Origin: Blastocatellia bacterium | GTDB taxonomy: Bacteria > Acidobacteriota > Blastocatellia > Chloracidobacteriales > Chloracidobacteriaceae | NCBI GenBank assembly: GCA_019695185.1 | Contig: JAIBAN010000056.1 | Coordinates: 1 to 54,027, forward strand | DNA length: 54,027 nt | Direction of reading: 5' to 3' | Shown here: piece after piece, positions 13,510 through 52,419 of the stretch | Layout of the letters: every line of letters starts with the position of its first letter | Numbering within the stretch: the stretch's first letter is position 1 | The notes under the pieces: model-generated | Told to the model about the DNA's origin: nothing | The model's input: only the letters and a program-made list of their open reading frames with translations | The model's database searches: none | Made by a program: the position numbers and the translations under genes

Positions 13510-15510
13510 ATGCTGAACATCAACCGGGTGATTTTATACAAACACGGAATTGGATATTTTGAACGAGCCGGTTCCATCGAAGGCGACAGGGCGGTGGATT
13601 TGTTTTTCCGCACCTCGGAAGTGAGCGACGTCCTCAAATCGCTGACGGTGATTGACCTGGACGGAGGCGAGATTGCCTCGGTGTCTTATGATTCCATCAA
13701 GCCGCTCGACGAACTGCTGCGCGACATTTCCCTGTCGGTGCCCGACGACAACAGTCTGCTCGGACTCCTGCCGCAATTGAAAGGGGCACAGGTGGAAATC
13801 CAGTGTGGCGGTGAAACCCTGCAAGCCATGATTGTGGGAATTGACCAGACGACCTCCCGCTCGGCGGACGGCATTACAACCACGCCCTCCATCACGGTTT
13901 TGACTTCAGACGGGCAACTGCAATCACTTTCCATGCGCGAGATTCGTTCGATTACCCTGCTTGAGGAACGACTGCGCAAGGAATTGGAGTATTACCTCAC
14001 CATGCATCTGTCCTCCAAAAAGAAGGACATCAAGAAATTCACTGTGTTCACCCAGGGGCAAGGTACCCGCCGGTTGCAGGTGAGCTACACGCTGCCCATG
14101 CCGGTCTGGAAGGCGACCTATCGCATCATCCTGGAGCCAAACCGCGAATCCATCATTCAAGGCTGGGCCGTGGTGGACAACACCCAGGACGAAGACTGGG
14201 AAAACGTCTCGTTGTCGCTGGTTTCCGGCCTTCCGATTTCGTTTATTCACGACCTCTATACCGCCCGCTATCTGCCGCGCCCGGTGGTGGCCGTCCAGGA
14301 GGAAACCTCGCTGGCACCACCGATGATGGAGGAACCCGTCTACCGCCAGGAACGCGCCACCAAAGAAATCTATCCGGGGGCAGCCGCAGCTCCGGCTCCG
14401 GCTCCGGCAGCCGAAAGTTATGCGACCACCGGCCTGGCGCAGGAAATGTCATTTGGGCATCAGGCCAAACGCCGGACCGCTCCGCAAGGCATCAGCAGCG
14501 TCAACGTCCAAACCCGCGAGCGGGCGGTGGGCGACCTGTTCCAGTACGAAATCACAACGCCGGTCACCATCAAGCGCAACCAGTCGGCGCTGGTTCCAAT
14601 TGTGTTTAAGAAATTCAAAGGCCGGTCGGTCCTCCTCTATAATGAACAAACCCGTGCCCGTAACCCGCTGACCTGCGTCGAGATGGAAAACACCACCGAA
14701 TTGACGCTGGAAGGCGGTCCGGTGACTGTGCTCGAAGGAGACACCTATGTGGGCGAGGCCATGCTGCAAACCATGAAGCCGGAGGAAAAACGACTGGTGC
14801 CCTATTCGGTTGAGCTGGGTGTCGTGGCCGAGGCCAAAATGGAAAGCCGGCAGGAACGAACCCACTTTGTCAAAATCGTCAACGGCACGTTGGAAGCCTG
14901 TTATCTGGATGTCCGGCAAAAAGTCTATGTGTTCAACAACAAGGTCAAAGCGGAACGGACCGTTTATATTGAACATCCGCGCGACCTGGGTTGGGAACTG
15001 ACTTCCACGCCGGAACCGGTTGAGACCACGCCCACCTATTACCGGTTCAAGGCCAAACTGGAACCCGACAGCACGGCGCGGTTTACGGTTCATGAAAAGC
15101 AGGAACGGAGCCACTATTATCAACTGCGCAATATCACAAGCGATGAGTTGGAATTCTACATTGGCCAGCGTTATGTCAACCGGCAGGCGGCAGAGACCCT
15201 GCAAAAAGTGCTGGAACTCAAACAGCAAATCAACGACCTTGACCTCGACCTGGGGCGTGCGGAAGTTGAAAGCCGTGACATTGAAACCGACCAGAAACGG
15301 ATCCGCGAAAATCTGCAATCGCTCAAGGAAGGCCGGGGTGAACAGGAACTCCGCACCCGGCTGGTGGAAAAACTGCTCAGTCAGGAGGAACGTCTGGAGC
15401 AATTGCAGAAATCCATCAGCCTGCAACGGGCCGAGCGCATCACCTTGCATGAAAAAATCAATTCGCTGATTGCTGACATCCGGATGGAAATCAATCTGAA
15501 TCAGGACTGA
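13510..15510 (+). CDS. Conserved hypothetical protein with C-terminal coiled-coil (possibly DUF4139/DUF4140-like)
   Basis: 666 aa. RBS AGGGAG. The globular N-terminal two thirds are followed by a heptad-rich coiled coil (LELKQQINDLDLDLGRAEVESRDIETDQKRIRENLQSLKEG...). The family assignment is from memory only and is weak. Confidence 0.55.
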   Translation: MLNINRVILYKHGIGYFERAGSIEGDRAVDLFFRTSEVSDVLKSLTVIDLDGGEIASVSYDSIKPLDELLRDISLSVPDDNSLLGLLPQLKGAQVEIQCGGETLQAMIVGIDQTTSRSADGITTTPSITVLTSDGQLQSLSMREIRSITLLEERLRKELEYYLTMHLSSKKKDIKKFTVFTQGQGTRRLQVSYTLPMPVWKATYRIILEPNRESIIQGWAVVDNTQDEDWENVSLSLVSGLPISFIHDLYTARYLPRPVVAVQEETSLAPPMMEEPVYRQERATKEIYPGAAAAPAPAPAAESYATTGLAQEMSFGHQAKRRTAPQGISSVNVQTRERAVGDLFQYEITTPVTIKRNQSALVPIVFKKFKGRSVLLYNEQTRARNPLTCVEMENTTELTLEGGPVTVLEGDTYVGEAMLQTMKPEEKRLVPYSVELGVVAEAKMESRQERTHFVKIVNGTLEACYLDVRQKVYVFNNKVKAERTVYIEHPRDLGWELTSTPEPVETTPTYYRFKAKLEPDSTARFTVHEKQERSHYYQLRNITSDELEFYIGQRYVNRQAAETLQKVLELKQQINDLDLDLGRAEVESRDIETDQKRIRENLQSLKEGRGEQELRTRLVEKLLSQEERLEQLQKSISLQRAERITLHEKINSLIADIRMEINLNQD

Positions 15511-15639
15511 GGACTGAGGACTGAGGGCTGAGAACCAACCGGAGCAGCAACCTGAAGCTGAGACTTTCCATGAAAGACTCCCCTGCATAATTTTGCTATG
15601 GCCAACACACGAAAAACTCAGTCCTCAGTCCTCAGTCCT
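15503..15639. repeat. Inverted pair of CTGAGGA-family heptamer arrays flanking the RBS/start of the ATP-grasp gene
   Basis: GGACTGAGGACTGAGGACTGAGGGCTGAG (15503-15532) and CTCAGTCCTCAGTCCTCAGTCCTG (15617-15639) are reverse complements separated by ~85 nt. Confidence 0.8.
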
Positions 15640-16896
15640 GTTTTTACTTCCTACGCTGAGTTTGCCCAAGCCCTTTATCAAACCGGGATTCTGTCGGACC
15701 CTTGGTTTGACGGGAACGAACGGTTCCGGCTGGAAGGCATCCGGCTGACATCCGACACCCTTCGCCAACTGGCCAAAACTGCCGAGCGGGTGGCCTATCT
15801 GCATCAGGAACTGGTGGAAATTCTGCTGGAGCACCCGGAACTGGTGGCCGAATTTTATCATTTGACACCGTGCCAGCAGGCCATGTGGGAAACCTCCGGC
15901 GGTGAATGGCATGGAATGGCCCGCGCCGACCTCTTTCTTTGCGAAGACGGACGGGTCCTCTGTTGCGAACTCAACAGCGACACGCCTTCGGGTCAGCCGG
16001 AGGCGGTCGTCCTGAATCAGCTTTTACACAATCATAATGGCCAACCGGAAGACCCAAACGCCGGATTTGCCGCCCGGTTTCTGGAGATGCTCCAGGAAAG
16101 CCATGCCAAACGAACCGACCAGCCGCTGGCACAGGTCGGCATCATCTATCCCACTGAACTCACCGAGGATTTGGGCATGATGACTCTTTTCCGCCGCTGG
16201 CTGGAAGCTGCTGGAATCCAGGTGGTGGTGGGTTCGCCTTTCAACCTGCACCGCACTGCAGACCGACTGGAAATCCTGGGCGTGCCGGTGGATTTGGTGG
16301 TGCGGCATTACAAAACCGACTGGTGGGGCGAACGGCTTCCCGTGTGGGCCGACCAAGCCGAGTTTCCCGACCCGGACCCGCTCTATGGTCCGCTCAAAAC
16401 CCTGCTCAAAGCCGAACTGGATGGCGTGGTGACCGTCGTCAATCCGTTTGGAGCGGTGGTTACCCAAAATAAATTTTCCCTGGCCTTTTTCTGGGAGGAA
16501 ATCGCCCGCTTCTCCCCCCGCTCGGCCCGCTGGATTCGCAAACACATTCCGGAAACCTATCGTATGACCACAGTGCCGCTCGAATTGCTGCGGGCTGAAC
16601 GGGAGCGGTGGGTCCTCAAAAGCGACTACGGCTGCGAAGGTGCAGAAACCGTGGTCGGCCCTTTCGTCAGTGATGAAATCTGGCACAAGAGTCTGGACAT
16701 GGCATTCCCCGAACATTTTGTCGTCCAACGATTTTTCCACGTCAAACCGGATGCCGCCGGCTGGTTGCCGAATTTCGGCGTCTTTGTGCTGGGCGGGAGC
16801 ACTGCCGGTTTCTTTACCCGGCTTTCCCCCAAAAGTACGGGGTATGACGCCGTGACGGTGCCAACTTTTGTTGCCAACTCATCGGCTGATAGGTGA
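15598..16896 (+). CDS. Glutathionylspermidine-synthase-like ATP-grasp amidoligase (YgiC/YjfC family, circularly permuted ATP-grasp)
   Basis: 432 aa. Motif RADLFLCEDGRVLCCELNSDTPSGQPEAVVLNQ matches the GSP_synth preATP-grasp signature (RxDF...DG..K.lEyNADTPtsl.Ea). Codons 7-14 are encoded by a CTGAGGA-family heptamer array. Confidence 0.7.
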   Translation: MANTRKTQSSVLSPVFTSYAEFAQALYQTGILSDPWFDGNERFRLEGIRLTSDTLRQLAKTAERVAYLHQELVEILLEHPELVAEFYHLTPCQQAMWETSGGEWHGMARADLFLCEDGRVLCCELNSDTPSGQPEAVVLNQLLHNHNGQPEDPNAGFAARFLEMLQESHAKRTDQPLAQVGIIYPTELTEDLGMMTLFRRWLEAAGIQVVVGSPFNLHRTADRLEILGVPVDLVVRHYKTDWWGERLPVWADQAEFPDPDPLYGPLKTLLKAELDGVVTVVNPFGAVVTQNKFSLAFFWEEIARFSPRSARWIRKHIPETYRMTTVPLELLRAERERWVLKSDYGCEGAETVVGPFVSDEIWHKSLDMAFPEHFVVQRFFHVKPDAAGWLPNFGVFVLGGSTAGFFTRLSPKSTGYDAVTVPTFVANSSADR

Positions 16897-16945
16897 ACAT
16901 ACTGAAAAAATTGTTTGGCTGTGAATCAAGGAGCAAAGCAAAACC

Positions 16946-18340: not shown

Positions 18341-18352
18341 GCGGTTTTCCGA

Positions 18353-19790: not shown

Positions 19791-20390
19791 ATGTTTCGAA
19801 CCCTAATCACAGTTGTTTTGTTTTTGCTCTGTGTTCCAATGACCGGTTTCGGTTTTTTGCAGGAACCCAAATCCGCCTTTTTCCCGCAAAACGTGGGCGA
19901 CCAGCACACCTACCGGAAAACCGGTCTGGGCGGGCAGGCCGTTGAATGGACCGACATTGTCCTCCAGAACGAAGGCCGCCGTTTCCAGCATTCCGATTAC
20001 TGGGGTGATGGCCGGCCCCGCTGGCTGTTGGCCAAAAACGCCGAAAAAATCTATGAATTCGACAATGGGAAAAAACTGCTCTGGTATAAGTTTGGAGCCA
20101 GTGAAAAAGAGGAATGGACCATCCAGGTGATGGGCGAAACGCCGGTTTGCGTCAATCAATCGGTGCTCCGGGTGGTGGGACGCGATGAAATCGTGACTGT
20201 TCCGGCAGGGACATTTGAACATTGCCTGCATCTTTCCTTTGAGCCCAAATGCTCCGATGCGGGAGCGCTGCAACAGTGGTTTGCCCCCAATGTCGGTCTG
20301 GTCAAACAGCTTGACAATACGATTGGCGGCCCTATCAAGGTTGAACTGATCCGGGCCCGTGTCAACGGAAAAACTGTCGGACAGAACTGA
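19791..20390 (+). CDS. Secreted hypothetical protein
   Basis: Internal start MFRTLITVVLFLLCVPMTGFG (signal peptide) is preceded by GAGG. The overlapping minus-strand ORF 19803..20579 is judged spurious. Confidence 0.5.
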   Translation: MFRTLITVVLFLLCVPMTGFGFLQEPKSAFFPQNVGDQHTYRKTGLGGQAVEWTDIVLQNEGRRFQHSDYWGDGRPRWLLAKNAEKIYEFDNGKKLLWYKFGASEKEEWTIQVMGETPVCVNQSVLRVVGRDEIVTVPAGTFEHCLHLSFEPKCSDAGALQQWFAPNVGLVKQLDNTIGGPIKVELIRARVNGKTVGQN

Positions 20391-20546
20391 CATGGAAACA
20401 GGGCTGAAGACTGAAAACTGAGTTTGTTTCCATTCCTGGCGGTGCGTCGCCAGGGTCATGAAGTTTGATATGGAAAAGCCGGTGAATGGTAAATGACTGA
20501 TTGAGTGAAGGCCCTTCCATTTACCATTCATCATGCACCAAAACCT

Positions 20547-21512
20547 ATGGGTGATTTCTTTCAGTTTCTGATGAAACATGGGTACTCGGTCGTGTTTGGC
20601 TGGGTGCTGGCGGAACAGTTGGGAATTCCGGTCCCGGCGGCTCCGGTCCTGCTGGCAGCGGGAGCGCTGGTGGCCTTGGGCAAAATGAACCTGCTCCTGG
20701 CAGCGGGGTTGGCCTTGGCGGCCTCGGTTTGTGCCGACCTGCTCTGGTATGAAATCGGGCGGCGGCGCGGCAGCCGGGTCTTGACCTTCCTCTGCAAAAT
20801 TTCACTGGAGCCAGACTCCTGCGTCAAAAACACTGAAAACGCCTTTGCCCGGAATGGAGCCCGGTCACTGGTTCTGGCCAAACTGGTTCCCGGACTGGGC
20901 ACGGTCGCACCGCCTCTGGCGGGAATCATGGGGATGCGGCTGGGCCGGTTCCTTTTCTTTGATGCCTGCGGGGCGCTGCTCTGGATTGGCCTTTTTATGG
21001 GGCTGGGCATGATTTTTTCCAACCAGCTTGAGCTGGTCCTCGAACTGGCTTCGCAGCTTGGTGAAAAATTCGGCCTTTTACTTGGCGGCACGCTTGCAGC
21101 CTACATTGGTTGGAAGTACATTCAGCGGCAACTGTTCATCCGTCATTTGCGTTCAGCCCGCATCACGCCCCAACAACTGAAAGAAAAACTGGATGCCGGA
21201 GAAAATGTGATTGTGGTTGACCTGCGGCACACGGCGGCACTCCAGTATGACCCGGATACCATTCCCGGAGCCAGGCACGTTGACCCCGACGAGTTGGACG
21301 AGAAAAACGACCTGATTCCACCGGACCGGGAGGTAATTCTTTTCTGCACTTGACCGAACGAAGCCAGCAGCGCCCGGGTGGCGCTCCGATTGCAGAAAAA
21401 AGGCATTACCAATGTGCGGCCCCTGCTCGGTGGCCTGGATGGCTGGCGGACCCAGAATTTTCCGGTGGTCCAACATCCGCTCACCACCGGTTCAGAAGTT
21501 GAAACCGGTTGA
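20547..21512 (+). CDS. DedA/VTT-family membrane protein fused to C-terminal rhodanese domain, with in-frame TGA (candidate Sec) in the rhodanese catalytic loop
   Basis: DedA part: MGDFFQFLMKHGYSVVFGWVLAEQLGIPVP... Rhodanese part: ...NVIVVDLRHTAALQYDPDTIPGARHVDPDEL...REVILFCT. TGA at ~21351-21353 is followed in the same frame by PNEASSARVALRLQKKGITNVRPLLGGLDGWRTQNFPV, a complete rhodanese C-terminal half. Next in-frame stop is ~21510-21512. The track ORF ends at 21353. Confidence 0.55.
21369..21385 (+). promoter_or_regulatory. Hairpin 15 nt downstream of the in-frame UGA (candidate bacterial SECIS-like element)
   Basis: AGCGCC CGGGU GGCGCU: 6-bp GC stem with a 5-nt loop containing G and U. 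Position is within the distance window used by bacterial SECIS models. Confidence 0.3.
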
Positions 21513-21553: not shown

Positions 21554-22153
21554 ATGTCGTGGTTTTCACGCATGTTCGGCGGCGAACAAAGTTACTTTTT
21601 GGGTCTTCAGGTTTTGATTCGGGCCTTTGGTGAAGACACCATTCGGGCCCGCTTTGCCAATGTGATTGCAGACCCGGACGGCAGTTTGCAGGATGTCGAA
21701 GCCAAACGCCGGTACCTCAAACGGATTGTGGCCTTATTGCTGGAACAGGAACCCTACTGGAGCCAGGGGTTTTGGGATTATAAAACCGACCACGGTGAGG
21801 CAACGGCGGAATTTGACTCCTGGGCAGCAGAGCTTTCGGCTACCACTGCCACTGAGCATGAGGAATTTGATTCCGATGTGGATGGCATGCGGCGGCTTTC
21901 CAAGAAAAAAGACTATATTTGCGTGACCATCATCCTGCATCTCAGCGAACCGTTCCCGCCCGCCGATGTCACCAACGAAGCACTCTTTTGGCAGCGCCAG
22001 ACCTTTCGCCAACTTTTTAACGGACTCCTGTATCTGAACCCTGAAGCCATTCTGGCGGATGGGGTGTTTGTGGTTCCCGGCAGTCCTGAAGACGGGCTTT
22101 CCGAAGAAGACCTGCTCACCGGTGGCTGGAGCTATTTGCGGGCGATTGCCTAA
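21554..22153 (+). CDS. Hypothetical protein, possibly DUF1517-like
   Basis: GGAGGA lies 10 nt upstream of ATG (MSWFSRMFGGEQS...). The C-terminal ...VVPGSPEDGLSEEDLLTGGWSYLRAI resembles the DUF1517 C-terminal pattern from memory. Weak. Confidence 0.45.
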   Translation: MSWFSRMFGGEQSYFLGLQVLIRAFGEDTIRARFANVIADPDGSLQDVEAKRRYLKRIVALLLEQEPYWSQGFWDYKTDHGEATAEFDSWAAELSATTATEHEEFDSDVDGMRRLSKKKDYICVTIILHLSEPFPPADVTNEALFWQRQTFRQLFNGLLYLNPEAILADGVFVVPGSPEDGLSEEDLLTGGWSYLRAIA

Positions 22154-22160: not shown

Positions 22161-22313
22161 GCTGAGGACTGAGAGTCTTCTTTTGGATACATTTAATCCA
22201 GATTGAGGACATTTCTGTACTTCGATGGTATAAATCATCCAGAAATTGTTTCTCAGTCCTCAGTCCTGAATTTTTCTCAGTCCTCAGTCCTCAGTCCTCA
22301 GTCCTCAGTCCTG
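22161..22313. repeat. CTGAGGA-family inverted heptamer arrays between the DUF1517-like gene and the STK
   Basis: GCTGAGGACTGAGAG ... CTCAGTCCTCAGTCC ... (TCAGTCC)x6. Confidence 0.8.
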
Positions 22314-24025: not shown

Positions 24026-24145
24026 GTTCCGAATTCTGAGTTCTGAGTTCTGAGTTCCGCCTGAAGGCGAACCCTCAATCACCCGCCTGTACTTTCCCGC
24101 TTCCCTCCCCTTGAGATGCAGTCCGGTAGAATTTTGAAAATTTTG

Positions 24146-24176: not shown

Positions 24177-24219
24177 CACTTGCTTTTTTAGTTTTACCAA
24201 AGTTCTTTGCCAGAGTCAG

Positions 24220-24415: not shown

Positions 24416-24452
24416 GCCACAGACCGCTTGGTCTGTGGCTTTTTGCTTTTTT
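24416..24452 (+). terminator. Intrinsic terminator (expression platform of the riboswitch)
   Basis: GCCACAGACC gctt GGTCTGTGGC followed by TTTTTGCTTTTTT. Confidence 0.7.
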
Positions 24453-24466
24453 GGGGCTTTTTTTCT

Positions 24467-26440: not shown

Positions 26441-26444
26441 AGAA

Positions 26445-26544: not shown

Positions 26545-26552
26545 AGGTATTT

Positions 26553-41910: not shown

Positions 41911-44235
41911 TCACTCTTTCACCACATAGACCTTGCCCTCAAACACCACCACCACTCTGGTTCCCAGGGCGAAAAAGTCCGCCAGTTTCGGCTTTTGCTG
42001 GAGCAGGGCGAAATAGGCATCGCTGCCGAATTTCACTTCCACGGTTGCGGTCTTGGCCTCTGGCTTGAAGTCGTCATCCGTCCAGACATCATCCAGCAGC
42101 CGGAAGGTTTTCTTACCCACCGTGCGCACAGTGCTGGATTCATACCGTTCGGCCTTGTCGGCATCTTTGAGCTTGGCGGTTTCCTTGCTCACCCGCACAG
42201 CCGATTCACCTGTCACGGCCACAATTTCAGACGAATTGCTCTGGCTCATCACCCCATCTGCCGTTGAGCCCGGCACACCACCCGGAGCGGACTTCCGGGC
42301 CGCCATCTGGTCTCGGCGGTCCCCTTCGCGGGCACGGCCACCGCTGCCCGCCCCCAATCCGCCGGAAACCATCGGAGCCGGACGATTTTGAGCGGTTATC
42401 GGCTGTCCCGGACGGTAATTGTCTTCCGTTGCCAGATATGAGGTGTAGGGCGTCACAATGCCATATCTTGTGCCCAGGTCGATGATTTCGTCGGTCAGTT
42501 CCTTATGTTCGCCATTCTGCCGAATCTGTTCCATCAAGGCTCCCACCCGGCGGGTGGCCCAGAGCTTCGGCAAAAATTCATTCTCGGATTGCACTCGTGG
42601 AAAAGCTTGTTCCTCAAAACCAAAGACCTGTTCCCGTCCCTGCACGTTGCCGGTCAGCTTGACGGTCACTTTGCGGTCGGAATCGTTGCGATACCGTCCG
42701 ACCACCACCAACTGCCCGCCCCGAAATAAATCAGGCAGGCTGCGTGGGTAGACATAATCGGTCGTCACACTGCCGAAATCGAGTTTGGTATCGGACAGGA
42801 CCGGATAATTGACCCGGCCAAAGAAGTTTGAAACCCGGACTTCGAGGTCTTCATTCGGTTCAATGTAATCACTGACACCCCGGTTGTTTTGCGCCAGCGC
42901 GTCCAACAGCCGCGTGTTGACATCATAGCCAACGCCAAAGGTGAACAGCCGCACATTGGCTGCATTCGACTTTTTGACCATTTGCTCAATGGCGTTTGGG
43001 TCGGTTGGTCCGACAGTTGGCAAACCGTCGGTCATAAACACAATCATGCGGGTATTTTCTGAATTGGAGGGGAACAGTTTGAGCGCAGCCGCCAGCGAAT
43101 CATGAATATTGGTTCCGCCTTCGGCCCGAAAACCATTGACGTACTCAGTTGCCCGCCGGATGTTTTCCGGAGTCGCCTGAATCAAACCGTTTTCAAACAG
43201 ATGTTCCTCACCCGAAAACTTAATCACGTTAAAGCGGTCCTGTCCGCCCAGCGAATTCAATCCGAACCGGAGCGCATTTTTGGCCTTTTCGATTTTTTCA
43301 CCACTCATTGAACCTGAGGTGTCAAACACGAACACAATCTCCTTGGTCAGCCGCTCGCGTTCGGAAACGACGACTTTCGGAGCCACCAGCATCAGGAAAT
43401 ACCCATCCTTGCCGGGTTCGCGGTGGGTCAGCAGGCTGACACCGAAATCCTTGTCACTCAATCCATAATAGAGTTGGAAATCCTCGGCGGCTTTGGTTCC
43501 GCCGGATTCAAAACTGAGGCGGGCCTTGCGCTCGCCATCCCGCTTGAGGTCAATCGAATGACTGGGTGAGTACACGGTTTTGACCGGAATCTGGGAATCA
43601 ATCTCAACCACACCGGCCACCGTCTGAGCGGGGGCTCCCATCGCCCGCTGGCCGCTGGCCAACGGATACCGATAGGCGACCAGGCCGTTTTCCGCCGTCA
43701 GCACCTGCGAATAGACCAGTTCTATTTTCTTTTCACTGTTGCCCGGAATCGGGAAAACACTCGCCTGAAACAGGTCTTTACCGACGTATTCAAGCAGTCC
43801 GGGGTCACGCATGGTGCGGACAATATCGTTGTAAATCTGACGGGCTTTGTTTTTTTCGACCACTTCACCCACCAGTCGGCGCGGTCCGTCCCAAATGGCA
43901 AACTCCGACAGCGCAGCATTTTCCGGAATCGGAAAACAATAGGTTCCTTCCAGTGTGGCGGGCGTTTCGTTCAGAAAAATCTGTTCCACCGAGGTCCGCG
44001 CCACCTGATTTTTAATGGTGGTCGTCACTTTGACGCTTTTTACTTTCAGCGTATGGGGTAACGGAACCGGTCTGGGCAGCGGGCGCGGCACCGGGCGGGT
44101 GATGTCCGGTTCCCGTGGAATCAGAATGCCCTGGGCCAAAGCCGAGCCTGTCAGTCCCCAAACCGACACGGCAATCAGCAGAAAAACTCCCCGGCAAAAT
44201 CCGGGGATTGCGATTGAAGTATTGTAGTGGTGCAT
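41911..44235 (-). CDS. Secreted VIT + von Willebrand factor A domain protein
   Basis: Start at MHHYNTSIAIPGFCRGVFLLIAVSVWGLTGSALAQG (signal peptide, GGAGG RBS). VIT domain (LKVKSVKVTTTIKNQVARTSVEQIF...). VWA MIDAS IVFVFDTSGSMSG. Confidence 0.8.
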   Translation of the reverse strand: MHHYNTSIAIPGFCRGVFLLIAVSVWGLTGSALAQGILIPREPDITRPVPRPLPRPVPLPHTLKVKSVKVTTTIKNQVARTSVEQIFLNETPATLEGTYCFPIPENAALSEFAIWDGPRRLVGEVVEKNKARQIYNDIVRTMRDPGLLEYVGKDLFQASVFPIPGNSEKKIELVYSQVLTAENGLVAYRYPLASGQRAMGAPAQTVAGVVEIDSQIPVKTVYSPSHSIDLKRDGERKARLSFESGGTKAAEDFQLYYGLSDKDFGVSLLTHREPGKDGYFLMLVAPKVVVSERERLTKEIVFVFDTSGSMSGEKIEKAKNALRFGLNSLGGQDRFNVIKFSGEEHLFENGLIQATPENIRRATEYVNGFRAEGGTNIHDSLAAALKLFPSNSENTRMIVFMTDGLPTVGPTDPNAIEQMVKKSNAANVRLFTFGVGYDVNTRLLDALAQNNRGVSDYIEPNEDLEVRVSNFFGRVNYPVLSDTKLDFGSVTTDYVYPRSLPDLFRGGQLVVVGRYRNDSDRKVTVKLTGNVQGREQVFGFEEQAFPRVQSENEFLPKLWATRRVGALMEQIRQNGEHKELTDEIIDLGTRYGIVTPYTSYLATEDNYRPGQPITAQNRPAPMVSGGLGAGSGGRAREGDRRDQMAARKSAPGGVPGSTADGVMSQSNSSEIVAVTGESAVRVSKETAKLKDADKAERYESSTVRTVGKKTFRLLDDVWTDDDFKPEAKTATVEVKFGSDAYFALLQQKPKLADFFALGTRVVVVFEGKVYVVKE

Positions 44236-44360: not shown

Positions 44361-44732
44361 CTAGGACAAATCCCGCATAACCTCTCCCAACACGGTTCTG
44401 ACCCGTTCGTATTCGGCCTGCAAATCGATGTAAAGCGCAGCGCCTCCTTCAGTCTTTCCAGCGGCTCCCATTTGTTCCAATTGCAGACAGATTTGCGCCA
44501 TTTTCAAGGCTCCAACATTGCTGCAACTACCTTTCAGGCTGTGGGCTGCCCGTTTAAGCTGGTTGGGGTCAGTGTGCTCCAAAGCTTTTCCAATATTGTG
44601 TAAATGGGTTGGTGAATCACTGACAAACAAATCAAGGATTTCGATAAAAGGCGCAATATCATCGTCTTCCTGCATGATTTCACGCAGATTTTCCAAAACC
44701 CCTGCGTCAACCGAATCATTGGAAAGTATCAT
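44361..44732 (-). CDS. Hpt (histidine phosphotransfer) domain protein
   Basis: 123 aa. HSLKGSCSNVGA phosphorelay His motif. Confidence 0.75.
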   Translation of the reverse strand: MILSNDSVDAGVLENLREIMQEDDDIAPFIEILDLFVSDSPTHLHNIGKALEHTDPNQLKRAAHSLKGSCSNVGALKMAQICLQLEQMGAAGKTEGGAALYIDLQAEYERVRTVLGEVMRDLS

Positions 44733-44853
44733 GGAGGTGGTTCCTTTTTGCCATTTGCCATTTATGAAAAAGGCGGTCGGAAATTCAGGGAAATGCCTTT
44801 GAGCAATGATGAATTGCTCCTACACAAATGGAAATCGCCAATGCTGCTGTCGG

Positions 44854-45864: not shown

Positions 45865-46108
45865 GGTCGCCCCCTGGTACCCTTTTTGTTGATAAACTCA
45901 AGCAATTGAACGAAGAAAGATGGTGAGCACAAGCAACCGCATTGTACTGAAATCAGCCCGTGGCACAAGGGTGAAGAGGTGAAAGGGTGAAGAGGTGCCA
46001 CAGTGCCGGGATGATTTCTGGTCAGTACCGCCTGCGGCAGCGGGCGGCTCCGGGTCAGTACCGCCTGCGGCAGCGGGCGGCCTCTCCATAAGGCTCGGCA
46101 TAGAGAAA

Positions 46109-46678
46109 TCATTCCTCTTCAAACTCTGTCTCAATCCAGTTGCCGTCCTCGTCATAGTAGCCGTAAATCCCGGCTTCGTGGTCGTTGAGGCCGTAATAGA
46201 CCGTCATGCCGCCATAGCGTTCGCATTCGTAGGGAATATCGAATTTTTCACCCGGATGCAGGAAATCCCCGTCCAGCGGAAGAATCGGCATTGAATCCCA
46301 ATCAATCTCAACCCGGATTCCGTCCACTGCCTCGTTGACCAGCCGGTGGGATAACTGGTCTCCGGTTGGCAGCAAATCGTCCGCCCGGCGACTGTAGCCT
46401 TCCACCGTGCCCTCTTCATCAATCGTGATTTCGGCATAACCGGGAATCTGAAAAGTGAAAAAAGGCAACAGGCTGAACGTCTGTACATTGATGCCGTGCT
46501 GATATGTCGTCAAACAAATACTTTCGTCATGCACGACCGCCAGCCAGACTCCCTGGTTGGTGCGAAACTCCTCTTCCAACCGTTGCCTGATTTTCTGAAT
46601 ATCGTTCAAGGCCCATAATTCAAACCGCCGGACCGTTCCTGGTGTCACGGAAAACTCAAGAACGTAGAAACTTCGCAT
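46109..46678 (-). CDS. Hypothetical protein with acidic C-terminus
   Basis: Start at MRSFYVLEFSVTPG... preceded by AGGAG. No family recognised. Confidence 0.4.
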   Translation of the reverse strand: MRSFYVLEFSVTPGTVRRFELWALNDIQKIRQRLEEEFRTNQGVWLAVVHDESICLTTYQHGINVQTFSLLPFFTFQIPGYAEITIDEEGTVEGYSRRADDLLPTGDQLSHRLVNEAVDGIRVEIDWDSMPILPLDGDFLHPGEKFDIPYECERYGGMTVYYGLNDHEAGIYGYYDEDGNWIETEFEEE

Positions 46679-46867
46679 AGGAAGCTGAACTCCTGTCAGA
46701 AATGTGGGGTGAAGGGGTGGAACCAGGCGACCGAGGGGACGGCATTCGGACCAATTCTCCCTTGTCCGGCAACGCTTGTCCATTCTCTTTTTTCAACGTT
46801 TTGCGGCTTTTCCATCGCGTATGAAGCAACGGAGCCGGGGGCCTGTCCCCAACCGGCCAAGAGTGAC

Positions 46868-46955
46868 CGGTAAATGGTAGATGGGAAATGCCATCCACTT
46901 TTGGTTACGGCAGATGTTCCTTACGGTTCACCAATCGCCATTTACCATTTACCTC
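46868..46955. repeat. TGGTAAA-family inverted short arrays
   Basis: GGTAAATGGTAGATGG ... CCATTTACCATTTACC. The same unit family recurs at ~20481-20533 (GGTGAATGGTAAATGA ... CATTTACCATTCATC). Confidence 0.7.
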
Positions 46956-47016: not shown

Positions 47017-48402
47017 ATGATTTTCGAAAACACACTTTTGCTGCTTAAACTCTATCTGCGTCCGATTGCCGGAATGAGCGACATCATGGACCGGGGCCGG
47101 TTGCTCTTTTTCCTCGGCTTTGTGGTGGTACTGTCAGCCCTGTGGCAATTGGGCATTGCGTCCCGGATTTACCAGAATTTTGAAAAAGTGCCCTACACGG
47201 TAACCCTGCCGGCCCAGATGGATATGGATGATGAAGCTGCTCCACAGGCCGCACCGGCAGCCAGCTATCCGCAAACGCGGACATTTTACCGGCGCGAACC
47301 ACTGCCACTGGTCGGGCAGGTCGGCTGGTGGTTTGTCAGTTTCAAGCCTTTCAGCATTTTTGCCACGTTTGCCGTTTTGGGGTTGCTGTATGTGCCGGGC
47401 ATTATTCTCATCATGACTTTTACCGAACACCTGGGGAGCTTTGATGTCATTTTGCGCCGTGATTACGGGCCGCTACTGGCCTGTACGCTGTCCAGTTGGG
47501 CGGCCTCTCACCTGCCTTTCGCCCTGCTCGGCCTGCTGCTGGATGTAATTTGTCGCAGTGCCGCCGGAGTGCTCAGCCCTCCCATGCAGGCGCTGACCGG
47601 AATGGTCTTTGACCCGGTCAAACTGGCGGCGGCCTTGGCTTTTGTTCTATGGATGGCAGCCACGCTGTACTTTGGCATCCTGATGATTTTCACTCTCCGC
47701 ACGGTTTTTGGCACAACCTGGGGCAAAGCCCTCGTGGTGATTTCCTGCGCCTGGATGTCAATGATTTTCGAAGGTGTCATTCTCATGCTGGCCTCGCCCT
47801 TCATTTTATACTGGGCCTATGTCTATTTCCGGGGAGACATCACTGACATTGACTCGGCGTTTCGCACCCGCCAAAGCCTGCACCATAACCTGGTGGCGGC
47901 CACAGTCAATCCGCACGATGCCGAAGCCCATTATCAACTGGGGCTGATTTACCAACAACGGCGGCAATATACCGAGGCCATCAACCGGTTCAAAAGAGCG
48001 ATTGAAATTGACCCGCGCGAGATTGACGCCCATTTCCAACTGGGTCGAATTGCCCGCGAGCAGGGACGCCTGCAAGAGGCCATCTCGCATTTTGACGCCG
48101 TGGTTTCACTCGACGACAAACATTGTCGCCATGAAATCTGGCGTGAAATCGGAGCCACCTATCTGGCTGCGGGTATGACAGCGGATGCTCTGACGGCACT
48201 GGAACGTTATACCGGACGGCGTGAGTACGACCCGGAAGGGCTGTGTCTGTTTGGCGAAACTCTGGCCAAACTGGGGCAGAAAGAACGTGCCCGGCAGGTT
48301 TTTGAGCATTGTATCGAAGCGGTTCGCACCATGCCCTATTATCGGCGGGGGCAGGTCCGCCGGTGGAGCAAGCTGTCCAAGGAACATTTAGGCAAACTTT
48401 AA
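47017..48402 (+). CDS. Polytopic membrane protein with C-terminal TPR repeats
   Basis: 461 aa. About 5 TM helices, then TPR motifs (AEAHYQLGLIYQQRRQYTEAINRFKRAIEIDP, AHFQLGRIAREQGRLQEAISHFD). Confidence 0.6.
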   Translation: MIFENTLLLLKLYLRPIAGMSDIMDRGRLLFFLGFVVVLSALWQLGIASRIYQNFEKVPYTVTLPAQMDMDDEAAPQAAPAASYPQTRTFYRREPLPLVGQVGWWFVSFKPFSIFATFAVLGLLYVPGIILIMTFTEHLGSFDVILRRDYGPLLACTLSSWAASHLPFALLGLLLDVICRSAAGVLSPPMQALTGMVFDPVKLAAALAFVLWMAATLYFGILMIFTLRTVFGTTWGKALVVISCAWMSMIFEGVILMLASPFILYWAYVYFRGDITDIDSAFRTRQSLHHNLVAATVNPHDAEAHYQLGLIYQQRRQYTEAINRFKRAIEIDPREIDAHFQLGRIAREQGRLQEAISHFDAVVSLDDKHCRHEIWREIGATYLAAGMTADALTALERYTGRREYDPEGLCLFGETLAKLGQKERARQVFEHCIEAVRTMPYYRRGQVRRWSKLSKEHLGKL

Positions 48403-48403
48403 T

Positions 48404-48584
48404 CAGGGTTCAGGGTTCAGGGTCCAGGGTCCAGGGTTTTTTGAATGGATAATTGACAATGGACAATTGACAATGAAAGCCCCATCCAGAGCTTCAAATC
48501 TGCTGATATTCGAAAACCCCGAACCCTGAACCCTGAACCCTGAACCCTGAACCCTGAACCCTGAACCCTGAACCCTGAATCCGA
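48404..48584. repeat. CCTGAAC-family inverted heptamer arrays: (AGGGTTC/AGGGTCC)x5 and (GAACCCT)x9
   Basis: Lies between the TPR-membrane gene and the PP2C phosphatase gene. The spacer itself contains a duplicated ACAATTGACAATG. Confidence 0.85.
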
Positions 48585-48663: not shown

Positions 48664-51117
48664 GTGTTCCGGATTTCTTCCATGTCTTTTGCCCTCTCAA
48701 CAGGTTCTGCCCTTTCCAACCGTATTGCGGTAGGAATCATTCTGATTGGTTTGGTGCTCCTGGTCATTCTGGTACCGCGTGGGTTTCAGGCCCCCCCGCC
48801 AGTTCAACTGACAGCAGCACAGGCCGAGGCTCGGGCCGGAGAATGGTTGCTTAAACTTCGCCCGGTTTCCCAACCTGCGGTCCCCTTGGCAAGATATGCC
48901 ACCTCTCATACCTTTCAGTTACGGCGCTCGATTTTGGACGCCGAATGGGAGTTTGGGTTCTACCTCAAAGAAGAAAAATGGCTGTACCAAATCTATCTGG
49001 AAACGGATGGCAGCCTGCGCAGCTTCCGCGTGTTTCATCTGGTTAAAGCTCCGGAAACTGATTCTCCGGTCCTTTCCAGTGAAATTGCCCTCCAGACAGC
49101 CCGCCAAACCATCGAGACCGCCGGTCTGAGCCGGGTGTTGCTGTCCAAACCACCTGAAATTGACGTAACGGCTTCCGTAGCGGGAAATCCCCGCCGGGTG
49201 GTGCGGTGGGAAACCAATCAACTCAACTGGGATGGAAAACCAAAAAACCTGCAAGTCACTTTTGAAGGTTCGGATTTACAAGCGGTCGAACTGAAAAATC
49301 CCGATCAACTTCCGGAATCGTTCACCCGGCGGCTCTTGATTGGCCTCACTGGCATCATTCTTTTGATTGGCTCCTTTTTGCCGGTTATCTATTCTTTTTT
49401 CCGGGATTTCGGACGGCGCGAGATTGGCTCGCGGGCCTCGCTCGTGCTGAGTCTGGGAACCGTGCTGCTGGCCAACGGGTCTTTGTTCCTGACGCTGATG
49501 GTCATCACCTGGAGTGAGTTGAAGGGACAAACCGCCAAATACCACACCTTTGTCGAAACCCTCATGGCCCCCACGCTGGAGGCCAATTTGCCCTATCCGG
49601 TCTGGGTGATGATTGCCCTGATTGGCATCTTGGGCATCTTTATCACTGTTTTTTTGTTTATCCCGGCCTTTGTTATTTTTAGCGCCACCGAGTCAAATGA
49701 CTGGGCCACTCAGGCCAATTTCCTGACCGATGTTCTGCGGGTTGTTCGCCTCAGAACCCTGGAATGGGTCCGGATTCGGCAGATATATCTGGCCGGCCTG
49801 GCTTTCGGCGTGTTGGTGCTGTTGCTCGAAACGGTTGGGGTCCTCTTGGAGCCCGCCGCTGGTGGCTGGTTACGGTTGCTGTTTTTCTCGCACAACTTCG
49901 CCGTTGGTTTATTTAAGCCGACCGAAATGCTGTTCCTGTTTTTTCTGTGGCAGGCAGTGGTGGGATTTTGGTTGATGCCGCTGTACGGCTCGCTTTTGCG
50001 GATCCGAAATCATCCCCTGGGAGCCGGAATTGTCGTAGTGGCGCTCAGTTGGCTGGTCTTTTTCCTGGTCATCAATCCTTCCCTCAAGGCAGCCAGTGAA
50101 CTTTTGATTCTCTTTGGCTTGACCGCCGTTATGCTCGTCCGGTTTGGCTGGCTGACCACTGCTCTGGGCTGGATGGTTCCCTTTGCCCTCTTCCCTTTGT
50201 TGTGGGCTTGCCGGTTTCCGGGCATGTTTCAGGCCAAAATGCTTTTGGGTCTGCCGTTTTTGGCCATTCCCGCCCTGCTGGGTTTGGTGCGGCAGGTGGC
50301 TCCCCGGACCGGCAAAATCGAAGAATTTGAAATTGCCCCGCCTTTTGTGCGGGAACGTTTCCAGCACGAACGCCGCAAGCAGGAGCTTGACATTAGATGG
50401 TCCATCCATCAAAACCTGATTCCAGCCAATGGGCTGGTGTTACGGGAACGCTCCATTGCTGTCGAATATCTGCACCTGCCTGACCACGGGCGGGAGCTTT
50501 TTTCATTTATCCCGCTGTCCCCCACCAGGTTGGGAATTGCCATTGGAGAGGTCAGTGGGCACGGCATTGAGGCTTCGATGCTCCTGGCCGTCACCATGAC
50601 CACTTTGAAATCAAAAGCCCTGCGCCATCCTGACAGTCCGGCTCAGACGCTTGAAAAAATCAACCGGTTTCTGGCGGAACGACTGCAACAGACCAATTCC
50701 ACCATTCAAATGGTTTATGGAATTGCGGATTTTGAGCACTCCACCTTCACTTTTTGCAACGCCGGATATGTTCCACCCTTGCTCCTGAAAGAAAAACCTG
50801 AGGCCGCCAAAGCCCTCCTCAAACACCTTCAAAAACTCCCTCCCTTGGGAAAAATGGACAACACCATCATCCAGGACCAAATCTGGAAAGCGGCTCCGGG
50901 TGACGCCTTGGTGCTCAACAGTGACTGGATGTGGGATTTATTTGACCCGGAATCAAGTCCGGTCCGCCTGGAAGAAAAACTGTGCGACCAAATCCTGCCC
51001 TTACAGCACCTGCCGGCCCAGGAACTGGTCCGCGCGATTGTGGCGCAAGGTCAAAGCCTCCAAGCGGCCCAGGGGAAAACCCCGATTGAAATTACGGCGG
51101 TATGCGTGCGGTTCTGA
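48664..51117 (+). CDS. Membrane-integral PP2C/SpoIIE-family Ser/Thr phosphatase
   Basis: 817 aa. Ten or more TM helices. C-terminal GIAIGEVSGHGIEASMLLA..., the SpoIIE/RsbU-type phosphatase core. Confidence 0.7.
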   Translation: MFRISSMSFALSTGSALSNRIAVGIILIGLVLLVILVPRGFQAPPPVQLTAAQAEARAGEWLLKLRPVSQPAVPLARYATSHTFQLRRSILDAEWEFGFYLKEEKWLYQIYLETDGSLRSFRVFHLVKAPETDSPVLSSEIALQTARQTIETAGLSRVLLSKPPEIDVTASVAGNPRRVVRWETNQLNWDGKPKNLQVTFEGSDLQAVELKNPDQLPESFTRRLLIGLTGIILLIGSFLPVIYSFFRDFGRREIGSRASLVLSLGTVLLANGSLFLTLMVITWSELKGQTAKYHTFVETLMAPTLEANLPYPVWVMIALIGILGIFITVFLFIPAFVIFSATESNDWATQANFLTDVLRVVRLRTLEWVRIRQIYLAGLAFGVLVLLLETVGVLLEPAAGGWLRLLFFSHNFAVGLFKPTEMLFLFFLWQAVVGFWLMPLYGSLLRIRNHPLGAGIVVVALSWLVFFLVINPSLKAASELLILFGLTAVMLVRFGWLTTALGWMVPFALFPLLWACRFPGMFQAKMLLGLPFLAIPALLGLVRQVAPRTGKIEEFEIAPPFVRERFQHERRKQELDIRWSIHQNLIPANGLVLRERSIAVEYLHLPDHGRELFSFIPLSPTRLGIAIGEVSGHGIEASMLLAVTMTTLKSKALRHPDSPAQTLEKINRFLAERLQQTNSTIQMVYGIADFEHSTFTFCNAGYVPPLLLKEKPEAAKALLKHLQKLPPLGKMDNTIIQDQIWKAAPGDALVLNSDWMWDLFDPESSPVRLEEKLCDQILPLQHLPAQELVRAIVAQGQSLQAAQGKTPIEITAVCVRF

Positions 51118-51120
51118 CTG

Positions 51121-51262
51121 ATTTGCCATTTGCCATTTGCCATTTGCGATTGACCATTTGATTGGTTCAGGCATTTGACTTTGCCCAATGGCCATTACGG
51201 GAAATGCTTTCCAGACTCGCGGCGTTATTCATGGCAAATCGCAAATCGCAAATCGCAAATGG
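51121..51262. repeat. TTGCCAT/ATGGCAA + TTGCGAT/ATCGCAA inverted heptamer arrays between convergent PP2C and fur genes
   Basis: (TTGCCAT)x3 TTGCGAT ... (ATGGCAA)(ATCGCAA)x3. Confidence 0.85.
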
Positions 51263-51264
51263 TT

Positions 51265-51753: not shown

Positions 51754-51970
51754 GAGTCCCTTTTTGTAGTTCTGAGTTTTGGGTTGGAGGTTGGAGGTTG
51801 CATTCCCTTGGTGAAAGCAATTCGCTCAGAAAGATCATTGTTTCACGCTCTGAAAGAACAAAACAAGTCTTTTTGACGGGTTGGAAAGACCGCTGGATTT
51901 TGCCCTGGGAACCTGTTTATGCTGCCCACCAGATATCCTCAAAGCTCAAAACTCAAAACCCAAAACTCTT

Positions 51971-52330
51971 ATGTCACTTGTTCTTGCCGTCGGAAGCGAC
52001 CTGTTTTTCTCCGCCAAAATCAAAGAGGCCGGTGTCCAAACGGGCATCACCATCGAATTCGCCCGCCGGATGGACGAGGTGGTGGCCAAAGCTCAAACTC
52101 TGGGTCCGCAACTGGTGATTCTGGACTTGAACAGTACCCGTTTGGATGCCTTGGAAGTGCTGACTCGGCTGAGAGCCGAAGGAAATCTCTCTTCCCTGCC
52201 GATTCTTGGTTTTTATTCTCATGTCCAGGCTGAACTGCGCCGTGAAGCCCTTGCCCGTGGCTGTACCAGAGTTGTGCCCCGGTCTGAGTTTTCAGCCAAA
52301 CTCCCAATCTTTCTCAGGGCTGAGGACTGA
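51971..52330 (+). CDS. Single-domain receiver (REC)-like protein, possibly atypical
   Basis: Start MSLVLAVGSDLFFSAKIKE.... LVILDLN holds the putative phospho-acceptor Asp. The N-terminal acidic pair is degenerate (GSD). Confidence 0.5.
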   Translation: MSLVLAVGSDLFFSAKIKEAGVQTGITIEFARRMDEVVAKAQTLGPQLVILDLNSTRLDALEVLTRLRAEGNLSSLPILGFYSHVQAELRREALARGCTRVVPRSEFSAKLPIFLRAED

Positions 52331-52419
52331 GGACTGAGGACTGAGGTCCTTTTATTGATGTGGAAAACTCAAAGCAAAGCAGCAGATTCTGCCCACTCAG
52401 TCCTCAGTCCTCAGTCCTG
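52319..52419. repeat. CTGAGGA-family inverted heptamer arrays between convergent REC-like gene and ftsY
   Basis: (CTGAGGA)x4 ... 48 nt ... (TCAGTCC)x3. Confidence 0.85.

Follow-up and report, generated by a model that had tools for sequence, protein, structure and literature searches.

What are the tandem repeats of seven nucleotides that stand between the genes of an acidobacterium, often as inverted pairs, and do they act on the genes beside them? The question is raised by contig JAIBAN010000056.1 of Blastocatellia bacterium (GenBank assembly GCA_019695185.1), of which positions 1 to 54,027 of the forward strand were analysed; this whole stretch of 54,027 nucleotides is called the window. 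Heptamer arrays had been described there by a reading made from the letters without database searches (the sequence-only reading), which compared them with the short tandemly repeated repetitive (STRR) sequences of cyanobacteria. The arrays are heptameric simple-sequence repeats, i.e. members of the class known as STRR in cyanobacteria and as long simple-sequence repeats (SSRs) with units of 5-11 nt elsewhere. They are kept out of coding DNA, inverted pairing predominates among them, and their polarity, G-rich and then C-rich, is tied to stops and starts.

Heptamer arrays between genes: pairing and polarity

Arrays were detected with Tandem Repeats Finder and with a separate period scan, at a main threshold of at least 3 copies. 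Coordinates refer to the + strand of the window unless stated otherwise; no strand is assigned to the features themselves. Nineteen arrays of period 7 were found, 681 nt in sum, the longest with 17.6 copies and the median at 4.3 copies. At other periods the same threshold gave one array of period 5, two of period 6, none of period 8, one of period 9 and none of periods 10-12. No period-7 array of at least 3 copies occurred in 50 shuffles of the window. The unit families are CTGAGGA/TCCTCAG (four loci), AGGGTTC/CCCTGAA (three loci) and TTGAGAA/TTCTCAA (two loci); further units are ATTTGCC and its relatives, GGTAAAT, TGAGTTC with GAGTTTT, and one 9-mer, GTCTTGAGG. At least six unrelated units are present within 39 kb. 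Both searches together recovered an array at every position named in the sequence-only reading. Only locus 20481 has to be qualified: inverted heptamer-like units are present, but they amount to a 12-bp inverted repeat of two degenerate units.

The gene map was drawn from open reading frames (ORFs) and codon usage, and matches to Pfam and NCBIfam mended three starts, namely those of the ECF sigma gene (ATG 34001, minus strand), the receiver-domain gene (ATG 51972) and the EF-P gene (ATG 33137, minus strand). On this map 87.6% of the window is coding and 12.4% intergenic. Of 24 arrays that measure at least 17 nt, the one at 43643-43660 alone is truly genic, in agreement with the earlier description of the arrays as STRR-like and almost wholly intergenic. 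About 22 intergenic gaps reach 50 nt or more, and 14 of them, all between 15.5 and 52.4 kb, carry arrays. No heptamer array was found in positions 1-15500, although the long intergenic regions 8507-9300 and 12967-13509 are present there. The window has a G+C content of about 54% and the gene content of an ordinary chromosome (TsaD, EF-P, FtsY, Fur, ECF sigma, Ser/Thr kinases, FHA, VWA and TPR proteins). The neighbours of the arrays are housekeeping or regulatory genes (EF-P, FtsY, Fur, ECF sigma, kinases).

An assembly artefact, a concern already raised in the sequence-only reading, was rejected, since two independent assemblies show arrays at matching places. The ENA metagenome contig L001 is 100% identical to the window over 1256 nt and terminates within the array upstream of the EF-P gene. 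The Logan contig L202 carries the AGGGTTC array and terminates inside it.

About 10 of some 14 array-bearing loci in the window hold a pair, i.e. one unit in inverted orientation with the arms 30-155 nt apart. The loci discussed are lettered A to K along the window; their coordinates are given further below. Predicted RNA folds of the pairs contain uninterrupted stems of 20-29 bp, as was to be expected if, according to the earlier description, most arrays form same-unit inverted pairs able to fold into long stems. Against dinucleotide shuffles, z-scores of the fold were -4 to -12 at loci A, C, D, E, G, H, I and K and weaker at F and J; no fold-energy signal was obtained at the solitary arrays 24023 and 27567. 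The pairs stand between co-directional genes at A, B, C, D, F and H, between convergent genes at I and K and between divergent genes at E, G and J.

The placement against gene ends is non-random, which had also been claimed before. Many arrays follow stops. Three stops lie within arrays (15508-15510, 24023-24025 and 52328-52330), because the unit itself provides the TGA, and six further stops (26440, 33441, 48402, 51117, 51265 and 52428) are 0-9 nt from an array. C-rich arms finish 2-34 nt ahead of six starts (22325, 26553, 27617, 38879, 34001 on the minus strand, and 51972), and recognisable ribosome-binding sequences fall between arm and start. One array is located in codons 7-14 of ORF 15598-16896. 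For phase-variation contingency loci, one would expect the repeat inside an ORF or promoter of a surface or host-interaction gene, where its length would switch expression; this one array is inside an ORF, many others come after stops, and the neighbours are of the housekeeping or regulatory kind. The 5' arm is G-rich in nearly every pair of the window, whichever strand is read; therefore, arrays are G-rich after stops and C-rich before starts regardless of gene orientation. G exceeds C in 9 of 10 stop-proximal arrays of the window, and C exceeds G in 6 of 7 start-proximal ones.

When the window and other contigs (next section) were pooled, neighbouring arrays of the same unit were inverted in 68 cases and direct in 19 (p = 1e-7). 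Pairs of the searched unit had a 5' arm with G > C in 33 of 36 cases; among the 32 pairs of other units, 31 were informative and 24 of these followed the same rule. On the sense strand, with crude ORF-based gene calls outside the window, stop-proximal arrays showed G > C in 88 cases versus 27, and start-proximal arrays G < C in 48 versus 20 (Fisher p = 5e-10 for the stop/start contrast). Polarity, pairing and copy number hold for units without a G-tract of at least 3, too.

Intrinsic (Rho-independent) terminators were considered and rejected, as the stems of 20-29 bp enclose 30-90 nt and no short loop of 3-8 nt. Pairs with a T-run behind them are those of loci A and B only; at H and K a T-run follows single arms. 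Terminator-like sites are not enriched in the window (35 versus 27.9 +/- 5.8 expected).

A separate observation concerns the TTGAGAA unit. (TTGAGAA)n arrays mimic a sigma-70 promoter (TTGAGA, 17 nt, GAGAAT; 9 of 12 positions); a consensus scan was uninformative. Such sites lie at 34015-34043 (+ strand), 34167-34139 (minus strand) and 38839-38811 (minus strand), and at the divergent locus E the pattern is aimed at each flanking gene. It could be a chance by-product of the unit.

Distribution and turnover of the arrays

Among 185,579 species representatives, the best matches of EF-P were 69% identical and belong to one Blastocatellia metagenome-assembled genome (MAG) and one MAG labelled Actinomycetota; EF-P of other Acidobacteriota is 52-59% identical. 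Relatives of the permease bear the names Pyrinomonadaceae, Blastocatellia or Acidobacteria. A cyanobacterial origin was rejected, as the relatives of both proteins are acidobacterial; the host is placed near Blastocatellia and Pyrinomonadaceae, and its species has no representative in the reference set. In 1.2 Mb around EF-P in 80 other genomes, mostly Acidobacteriota, 12 arrays were found (0.0099 per kb); the density of 0.35 per kb in the window is 36-fold higher. The Blastocatellia MAG L003, the nearest labelled relative, shows the layout of the window with another unit: a stop, GATTGAA x2.6, 99 nt, AATCTTC x3.6 and an ATG. Furthermore, a GAAGACA/CTTCTGA pair was found in a Bryobacterales MAG (L037) and about 17 copies of CCCCAGT in an Acidobacteriaceae MAG (L034). 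L002 and L003 also hold a degenerate AATCxxx run (AATCTTC AATCGAA A[A/C]TCGTC AATCCGT; about 9940-9985) some 20-45 nt upstream of the EF-P start, which is placed like the C-rich arm of the window and belongs to a different unit family. A conserved sequence upstream of EF-P in these two contigs, hinted at by tblastn, was rejected, as the DNA alignment showed no real homology to the window.

A metagenome scan with (CTCAGTC)3.3 gave at least 120 matching contigs with a G+C content of 0.37-0.71. These contain 249 arrays of period 7, 18 of period 6, 9 of period 5, 2 of period 8 and 1 of period 9, and many other units form inverted pairs in them. The median of the non-target arrays in other contigs is 4.1 copies. 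By 90%-identity protein clusters, two array-rich contigs were placed in Thermoanaerobaculia (L183) and Pyrinomonadaceae (L113). No orthologous locus close enough for comparison was detected among 120 metagenome contigs (blastn and tblastn against the window), and no protein identical to Fur, the SPFH protein or the TPR protein of the window is on record.

Two side observations were made in these scans. In IMG/VR, 32 viral or proviral contigs (L208-L239) hold at least 3.3 copies of CTCAGTC; matches on the opposite strand occur in 0 of these 32 versus 12 of 80 of the metagenome contigs listed. In contig L165 (2448-5732, minus strand), arrays lie inside a MutS-like ORF of 1094 aa, in frame as SPVSSLQ repeats, and an ORF of that length is recorded in several sources. 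Arrays with a copy number that is a multiple of three may survive in coding linkers.

The turnover of arrays was followed at the permease gene. In L202 (Logan run SRR26871262) the permease protein is identical and the DNA is 96.8% identical over 2412 nt. At least 4.1 copies of AGGGTTC follow the permease stop in L202, the contig of which ends in the array, versus 2.9 in the window; the strain comparison of copy numbers suggested by the sequence-only reading thus revealed a difference at this one locus. The sequence beside the upstream array is far more diverged in L202 than the neighbouring riboswitch (described below). In L203, with 77% permease protein identity, both flanking genes are kept, and the downstream ORF is 57% identical to 26553-27047. 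A repeat-free gap of about 20 nt stands there in place of the 112-nt module 26441-26552 (arm, spacer, arm); therefore, the module is lineage-specific. More distant relatives, at 65-67% protein identity, were free of arrays over 30 kb. Arrays change length between close relatives, as seen at one locus, and turn over completely within family-level distance.

The arms of a pair differ in copy number (17.6 versus 3.4 at D, 5 versus 9.3 at H, 2 versus 2.6 + 5.6 at B), and at locus I they are built of different variants (ATTTGCC versus ATTTGCG). Degenerate units occur at array edges; the run at 51767-51800 is decayed, and that at 20402-20422 is probably a decayed array as well. The spacers of the window are not homologous to one another, nor are the 48 spacers of at least 20 nt that separate the arms of inverted pairs in all contigs; an all-against-all comparison of these 48 gave only leftover heptamer matches. 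Neither a transposase nor a RAYT gene (for the transposase of repetitive extragenic palindromes, REP) is present among the roughly 36 genes of the window. Unrelated spacers, unequal arms and the lack of a transposase in the window favour slippage-born microsatellites filtered by selection over a mobile element. For the same reasons, and because the arms contain different variant units, the earlier proposal of a spread by copying or recombination is not supported.

The single loci and other features of the window

At locus A the G-rich arm (15501-15526, CTGAGGA x3.7) encloses the TGA stop of gene 13510-15510, and the C-rich arm (15617-15639, CTCAGTC x3.3) is the array over codons 7-14 mentioned above; a 26-bp stem with a 90-nt spacer was predicted (z = -6.8). 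The degenerate heptamer run at 20402-20422 (GGCTGAA GACTGAA AACTGAG, i.e. three units xxCTGAx) begins 11 nt past the stop 20388-20390. The small inverted pair of two degenerate units (20484-20495, GAATGGTAAATG; 20518-20529, CATTTACCATTC) forms a 12-bp inverted repeat at, or slightly upstream of, the start of gene 20505-21353. Locus B consists of a G-rich arm (22162-22175, CTGAGGA x2), 8 nt past the stop 22151-22153, and of C-rich arms (22250-22312, TCCTCAG x2.6 + x5.6) that stop 12 nt short of the GTG (22325) of a Ser/Thr kinase gene. A solitary G-rich array (24023-24057, TGAGTTC x5) supplies with its first TGA the stop of this kinase gene (22325-24025). At locus C the G-rich arm (26445-26464, AGGGTTC x2.9) lies 4 nt past the permease stop and the C-rich arm (26518-26541, CCCTGAA x3.4) 11 nt ahead of ATG 26553, with a 20-bp stem (z = -6.7). 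A solitary C-rich array (27567-27600, AACCCTG x4.9) stands 16 nt ahead of ATG 27617, and the ribosome-binding sequence AAGGAG is found in between.

Locus D has a short arm (33259-33282, AGGACTG x3.4 on the + strand and C-rich on the transcribed minus strand) 121 nt upstream of the EF-P start 33137, with an additional pair of copies at 33243-33255. Its long arm (33313-33435, 17.6 copies, CTGAGGA on the minus strand) lies 5 nt past the stop of the ECF sigma gene; only 27 bp of it match the short arm (z = -11.9). At locus E one arm (34013-34043, AATTGAG x4.4 on the + strand, CTCAATT on the minus strand) is 11 nt upstream of the ECF sigma ATG 34001 (minus strand), and the other (34127-34156, TCTCAAT x4.3) is 114 nt upstream of a kinase ATG at 34271; the predicted stem has 29 bp and the spacer 83 nt (z = -7.7). 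Locus F combines the 9-mer array (38755-38803, GTCTTGAGG x5.4) with a C-rich heptamer array (38809-38844, CAATTCT x5.1) 34 nt ahead of ATG 38879; the two neighbours pair out of register (z = -2.5). A small array (44747-44763, TTTGCCA x2.4) is situated between two minus-strand genes, 14 nt from the start of the Hpt gene 44361-44732.

The arms of locus G, in a divergent intergenic region, are GGTAAAT x3, imperfect (46869-46890), and CCATTTA x2.3 (46938-46953); 16-nt arms with 94% complementarity pair at a distance of 53 nt (z = -4.1). At locus H the G-rich arm (48403-48437, TCAGGGT x5) begins directly after the TAA stop 48400-48402, an inner array of another unit (48444-48475, AATGGAC/AATTGAC x4.6) occupies part of the spacer, and the C-rich arm (48515-48579, AACCCTG x9.3) follows (z = -9.5). 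Locus I lies between convergent genes. Its first arm (51121-51160, ATTTGCC x3.9 + degenerate units), 3 nt past the stop 51115-51117, is an exception to the polarity (G < C). The second (51231-51260, GCAAATC x4.3) is 4 nt from the Fur stop on the minus strand and has one mismatch per unit to the first (z = -4.2). At locus J a degenerate arm (51767-51800, TAGTTCT GAGTTTT GGGTTGG AGGTTGG AGGTTG), 14 nt upstream of the Fur ATG (minus strand), and an imperfect arm (51938-51969, CTCAAAA x4.4), which ends 2 nt ahead of the receiver-domain gene ATG 51972, pair over about 12 bp (z = -2.9). The G-rich arm of locus K (52316-52346, CTGAGGA x4.4) encloses the TGA stop 52328-52330 and the C-rich arm (52396-52418, CTCAGTC x3.3) is 9 nt from the FtsY stop on the minus strand; the stem has 25 bp and the spacer 49 nt (z = -6.5). 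The flanks outside the C-rich arms of D and K (33243-33258 and 52419-52432) both hold CCTGGATT(T/C)GTCCT; no other hint of homology outside the arrays was seen, and this one may be merely a decayed unit.

Other features were noted in the window. A c-di-AMP (ydaO/yuaA) riboswitch was identified at 24216-24388 on the + strand (72 bits versus a gathering score of 38), upstream of the APC-family amino-acid permease gene 24467-26440, and a terminator-like stem with a T-run follows at about 24427-24455. The riboswitch is nearly identical in L202 and recognisable in L203. It is unrelated to the arrays; no other known RNA family and no tRNA or tmRNA (transfer-messenger RNA) gene was found in the window. 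At 13180-13249 two adjoining 11-nt arrays (AGAGAAAACGC x2.7 and AAAACTCTGCG x3) are partly reverse-complementary (z = -3.3); therefore, the habit of inverted pairing is not strictly confined to 7-nt units. Two repeats lie at 45967-46081, within the 244 nt that separate the FHA-domain gene from ORF 46109-46783; both are on the minus strand, and the gap is downstream of the former and upstream of the latter. These repeats are a perfect 29-nt direct repeat, GGTCAGTACCGCCTGCGGCAGCGGGCGGC, at 46020 and 46053 (33 nt apart) and a perfect 15-nt repeat at 45967 and 45983 (16 nt apart). In the heptamer-free part, a perfect 14-bp palindrome with a 1-nt loop (5858-5886, AAAAGGAGGCTGAA T TTCAGCCTCCTTTT) lies between convergent genes and looks like a conventional bidirectional terminator.

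Known repeats, possible explanations and significance

Abundant intergenic inverted doublets are known from Proteobacteria. These REP elements, with the bacterial interspersed mosaic elements (BIME) and the hairpin-forming REP doublets (REPIN), form hairpins between co-directional or convergent genes and stabilise the upstream mRNA. REPs are imperfect palindromes of 20-40 nt with conserved sequence; they are spread by the RAYT transposase and are not tandem microsatellites. In contrast, the arms described here are pure 7-nt arrays with unrelated spacers, and no RAYT gene was seen in the window. For the STRR of cyanobacteria, the canonical units of STRR1-3 are CCCCAGT, TTGGTCA and CAACAGT. The Nostoc unit GGGGACT is presumably the same as the STRR1 unit CCCCAGT. 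STRR in the strict sense (STRR1-3) was rejected for the window, as the host is acidobacterial and the units are not the canonical ones. ACTGAGG of the window is one base off Nostoc GGGGACT (= ACTGGGG rotated; PMC4692102). Cyanobacterial STRR (Calothrix, Nostoc, Anabaena; PMC2670836, PMC4692102) are likewise intergenic, with several unit families per genome and some hairpins between co-transcribed genes. For the hairpins at the hupS-hupL junction, the suggested roles are transcript stability or translational coupling (PMC2670836).

The sequence-only reading regarded heptamer arrays as undescribed outside cyanobacteria. This is not the case, since they were published for Xanthomonas (PMC4692102), Geobacter (PMC2700814) and Beggiatoaceae and Bacteroidetes (PMC4679880). 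According to the survey of Mrazek et al. (2007), as far as it is summarised in a passage of PMC4679880, heptamers are the top class of long SSRs in most genomes rich in repeats of 5-11 nt, and the richest genomes are those of Burkholderia, Xanthomonas, Actinobacteria and Cyanobacteria. Rehm et al. (2015; PMC4692102) reported 186 and 183 GGGAATC arrays in two xanthomonads, with 70 and 75 cases of convergent inverted pairs. The arrays are strongly intergenic, have 2-26 copies with four preferred, and some overlap stops. Within 50 bp after stops the coding strand is the G-rich one; before ORFs, the non-coding strand is. Array length differs between species at conserved positions; neither a link to mobile elements nor a function was found. 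Comparison with the repeats of Xanthomonas campestris, X. axonopodis and Nostoc PCC 7120 shows that tandem 7-mers, inverted pairs, the strand rule at stops and starts and about 4 copies are shared. However, Xanthomonas and Nostoc have one dominant, quadruplex-capable unit per genome, whereas at least six units occur here and only AGGGTTC has a G-tract of at least 3. The density also differs, with 14 array-bearing intergenic regions in 39 kb here versus about 186 arrays in a whole Xanthomonas genome, and the host phylum, Acidobacteriota, is not that of Xanthomonas or Nostoc.

In Geobacter metallireducens, 4-5 tandem heptamers (GGACCGG; MTYCTGA) occur at dozens of sites according to the pertinent passages of Aklujkar et al. 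(2009; PMC2700814). There, the MTYCTGA class is drawn as looping between strands and putative global-regulator sites are mostly paired. In contrast to the present arrays, the elements are annotated in these passages as regulator-binding sites or RNA elements, some are genic, and the passages give no polarity analysis. MacGregor (2015; PMC4679880) described intergenic TAACTGA arrays of 2-6 copies (up to 43) in Beggiatoaceae, Cyanobacteria and Bacteroidetes. As in the window, these arrays end a few nt before starts or overlap the end of the upstream ORF; contigs frequently break in them, and strains differ by indels in 7-nt steps. They differ in having a single unit and in being nearly all direct (in the Orange Guaymas genome, 1 of 170 is inverted). 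Their proposed role is not that of a hairpin; they would bind S1, Csp or CsrA in single-stranded form (PMC4679880). In the literature searched, no published description of heptamer arrays in Acidobacteriota was found. The class is already known from cyanobacteria, Xanthomonas, Geobacter and other bacteria; new are the phylum, the density and the presence of several units per genome. Also new is the polarity in units unable to form G-quadruplexes, which recurs in at least 120 metagenome contigs, some of them acidobacterial. The difference in copy number to L202 and the lack of the module in L203 are new as well.

With moderate confidence, the arrays are regarded as slippage-born heptamers that were filtered by selection and that most likely act as intercistronic or 3'-end RNA hairpins. 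Replication slippage would lengthen or shorten each array by steps of 7 nt. Pairs probably begin as short inverted repeats at gene boundaries, after which each arm would expand independently, and this would explain the unequal arm lengths and the arm-specific variant units. Selection would purge coding sequence of arrays, since 7 is not divisible by 3. It would also set the strand rule of G-rich arrays on the sense strand just past stops and C-rich ones just ahead of starts, because G-rich units such as CTGAGGA are Shine-Dalgarno-like and often TGA-bearing and would thus be tolerated after a stop but not before a start. Where one transcript runs over both arms, i.e. at co-directional or convergent genes, a stem of 20-29 bp would result, the base of which would juxtapose the upstream stop and the downstream ribosome-binding region. 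This stem could shield the upstream mRNA from 3' exonucleases. Long RNA duplexes are substrates of RNase III, and the stem could serve as a site for this enzyme. It could also couple translation, if the downstream gene needs ribosomes that open the stem while finishing the upstream gene.

Several points weigh against this explanation. The function as RNA hairpin is something we infer, and the likeness to ribosome-binding sites as cause of the polarity is our own suggestion from the units. At the divergent loci E, G and J promoters probably lie between the arms; therefore, each mRNA would carry one arm and no RNA hairpin would form there. There is no strong maintenance of perfect pairing, as seen from the unequal arms and from the mismatches per unit at locus I. 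The copy-number polymorphism comes from one locus, at which the contig of the relative ends inside the array. Outside the window the crude gene calls scored 70 arrays as genic; frequent spurious long ORFs in contigs of high G+C content are the probable cause. As to the preference for period 7, the published idea of a polymerase footprint is speculative. Divergent loci and unequal or mismatched arms caution against a strong and uniform function as RNA hairpins.

A neutral origin is less likely but keeps a considerable probability: the arrays would be functionless, slippage-prone microsatellites, their location, polarity and pairing would result from mutational bias and the loss of harmful insertions, and the hairpins would be inconsequential. 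The fast turnover, with the module missing at the orthologous site in L203 (77% protein identity), agrees with this, as do the unequal arms, the imperfect match at locus I, the many unrelated units per genome, the decayed arrays and neighbour genes of all functional classes. No regulatory role was found in Xanthomonas by Rehm et al. either (PMC4692102). However, 68 inverted versus 19 direct neighbours of the same unit are unlike random orientation, and polarity and close abutment to stops and starts recur across phyla and units. Perfect RNA duplexes of 20-29 bp would hardly remain without effect once transcribed. A role at the DNA level, resembling REP/BIME, was judged unlikely. Here, cruciforms or the binding of nucleoid proteins or gyrase at gene boundaries would act as supercoiling or protein-binding punctuation, independent of RNA. 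Such a role would suit the pairs between divergent genes (E, G, J), where a transcript over both arms is unlikely, and a geometry that is symmetric on both strands; the likeness of (TTGAGAA)n to a sigma-70 promoter (TTGAGA-17 nt-GAGAAT) can be added. But cruciform extrusion is kinetically unfavourable with spacers of 30-90 nt, at least six unrelated units would require several binding proteins or recognition by shape only, and no candidate protein was identified. That the paired heptamer sites of Geobacter are annotated, in the passages cited, as putative binding sites of global regulators (PMC2700814) speaks for the DNA level, whereas the polarity is defined by coding-strand boundaries, which points to RNA or translation.

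A mobile foldback element of the MITE (miniature inverted-repeat transposable element) or REPIN kind, with heptamer arms as terminal inverted repeats copied by a transposase encoded elsewhere, is very improbable and for the window largely refuted. CTGAGGA does occur at four distant loci of the window, in at least 120 metagenome contigs and in 32 viral contigs, the module 26441-26552 looks like an insertion in comparison with L203, and CCTGGATT(T/C)GTCCT is common to the flanks of two loci. But the spacers (those of the window and the 48 of at least 20 nt) share no homology, arm lengths vary freely, target-site duplications are not evident, a transposase or RAYT gene was not found in the window, and Rehm et al. 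likewise saw no association with mobile elements (PMC4692102). G-quadruplex elements, as proposed for GGGAATC of Xanthomonas and GGGGAYT of Nostoc, can hardly be expected. A typical array has about 4 units (medians of 4.3 in the window and of 4.1 for non-target arrays elsewhere), which fits the four G-tracts needed, and the AGGGTTC family has GGG in every unit. Yet CTGAGGA, TTGAGAA, TGAGTTC, ATTTGCC and GGTAAAT lack a G-tract of at least 3 and show a like copy number, pairing and polarity, which weakens the explanation by quadruplexes for the whole class. Finally, it is conceivable, but improbable, that the arrays are a deliberate punctuation of gene boundaries across phyla, written or maintained by a dedicated heptamer-binding protein or by templated copying, with long duplexes setting processing, stability and coupling at many operon junctions. 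Polarity and the length of about four units would then be design features and not filters on slippage products.

In general, this genome is an extreme case, as arrays are present in about two thirds of the larger intergenic regions across 39 kb. The arrays break short-read assemblies, and two independent contigs end inside them. Polarity and a length of about four units are shared with Xanthomonas despite units that cannot form quadruplexes, which argues for constraints from gene boundaries and translation or for hairpin formation, and not for quadruplex chemistry. One architecture with different units, together with close relatives with and without a given module, provides a natural test set. 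It can be used to ask whether long intercistronic duplexes shape the fate of mRNA in a major, poorly studied soil phylum.

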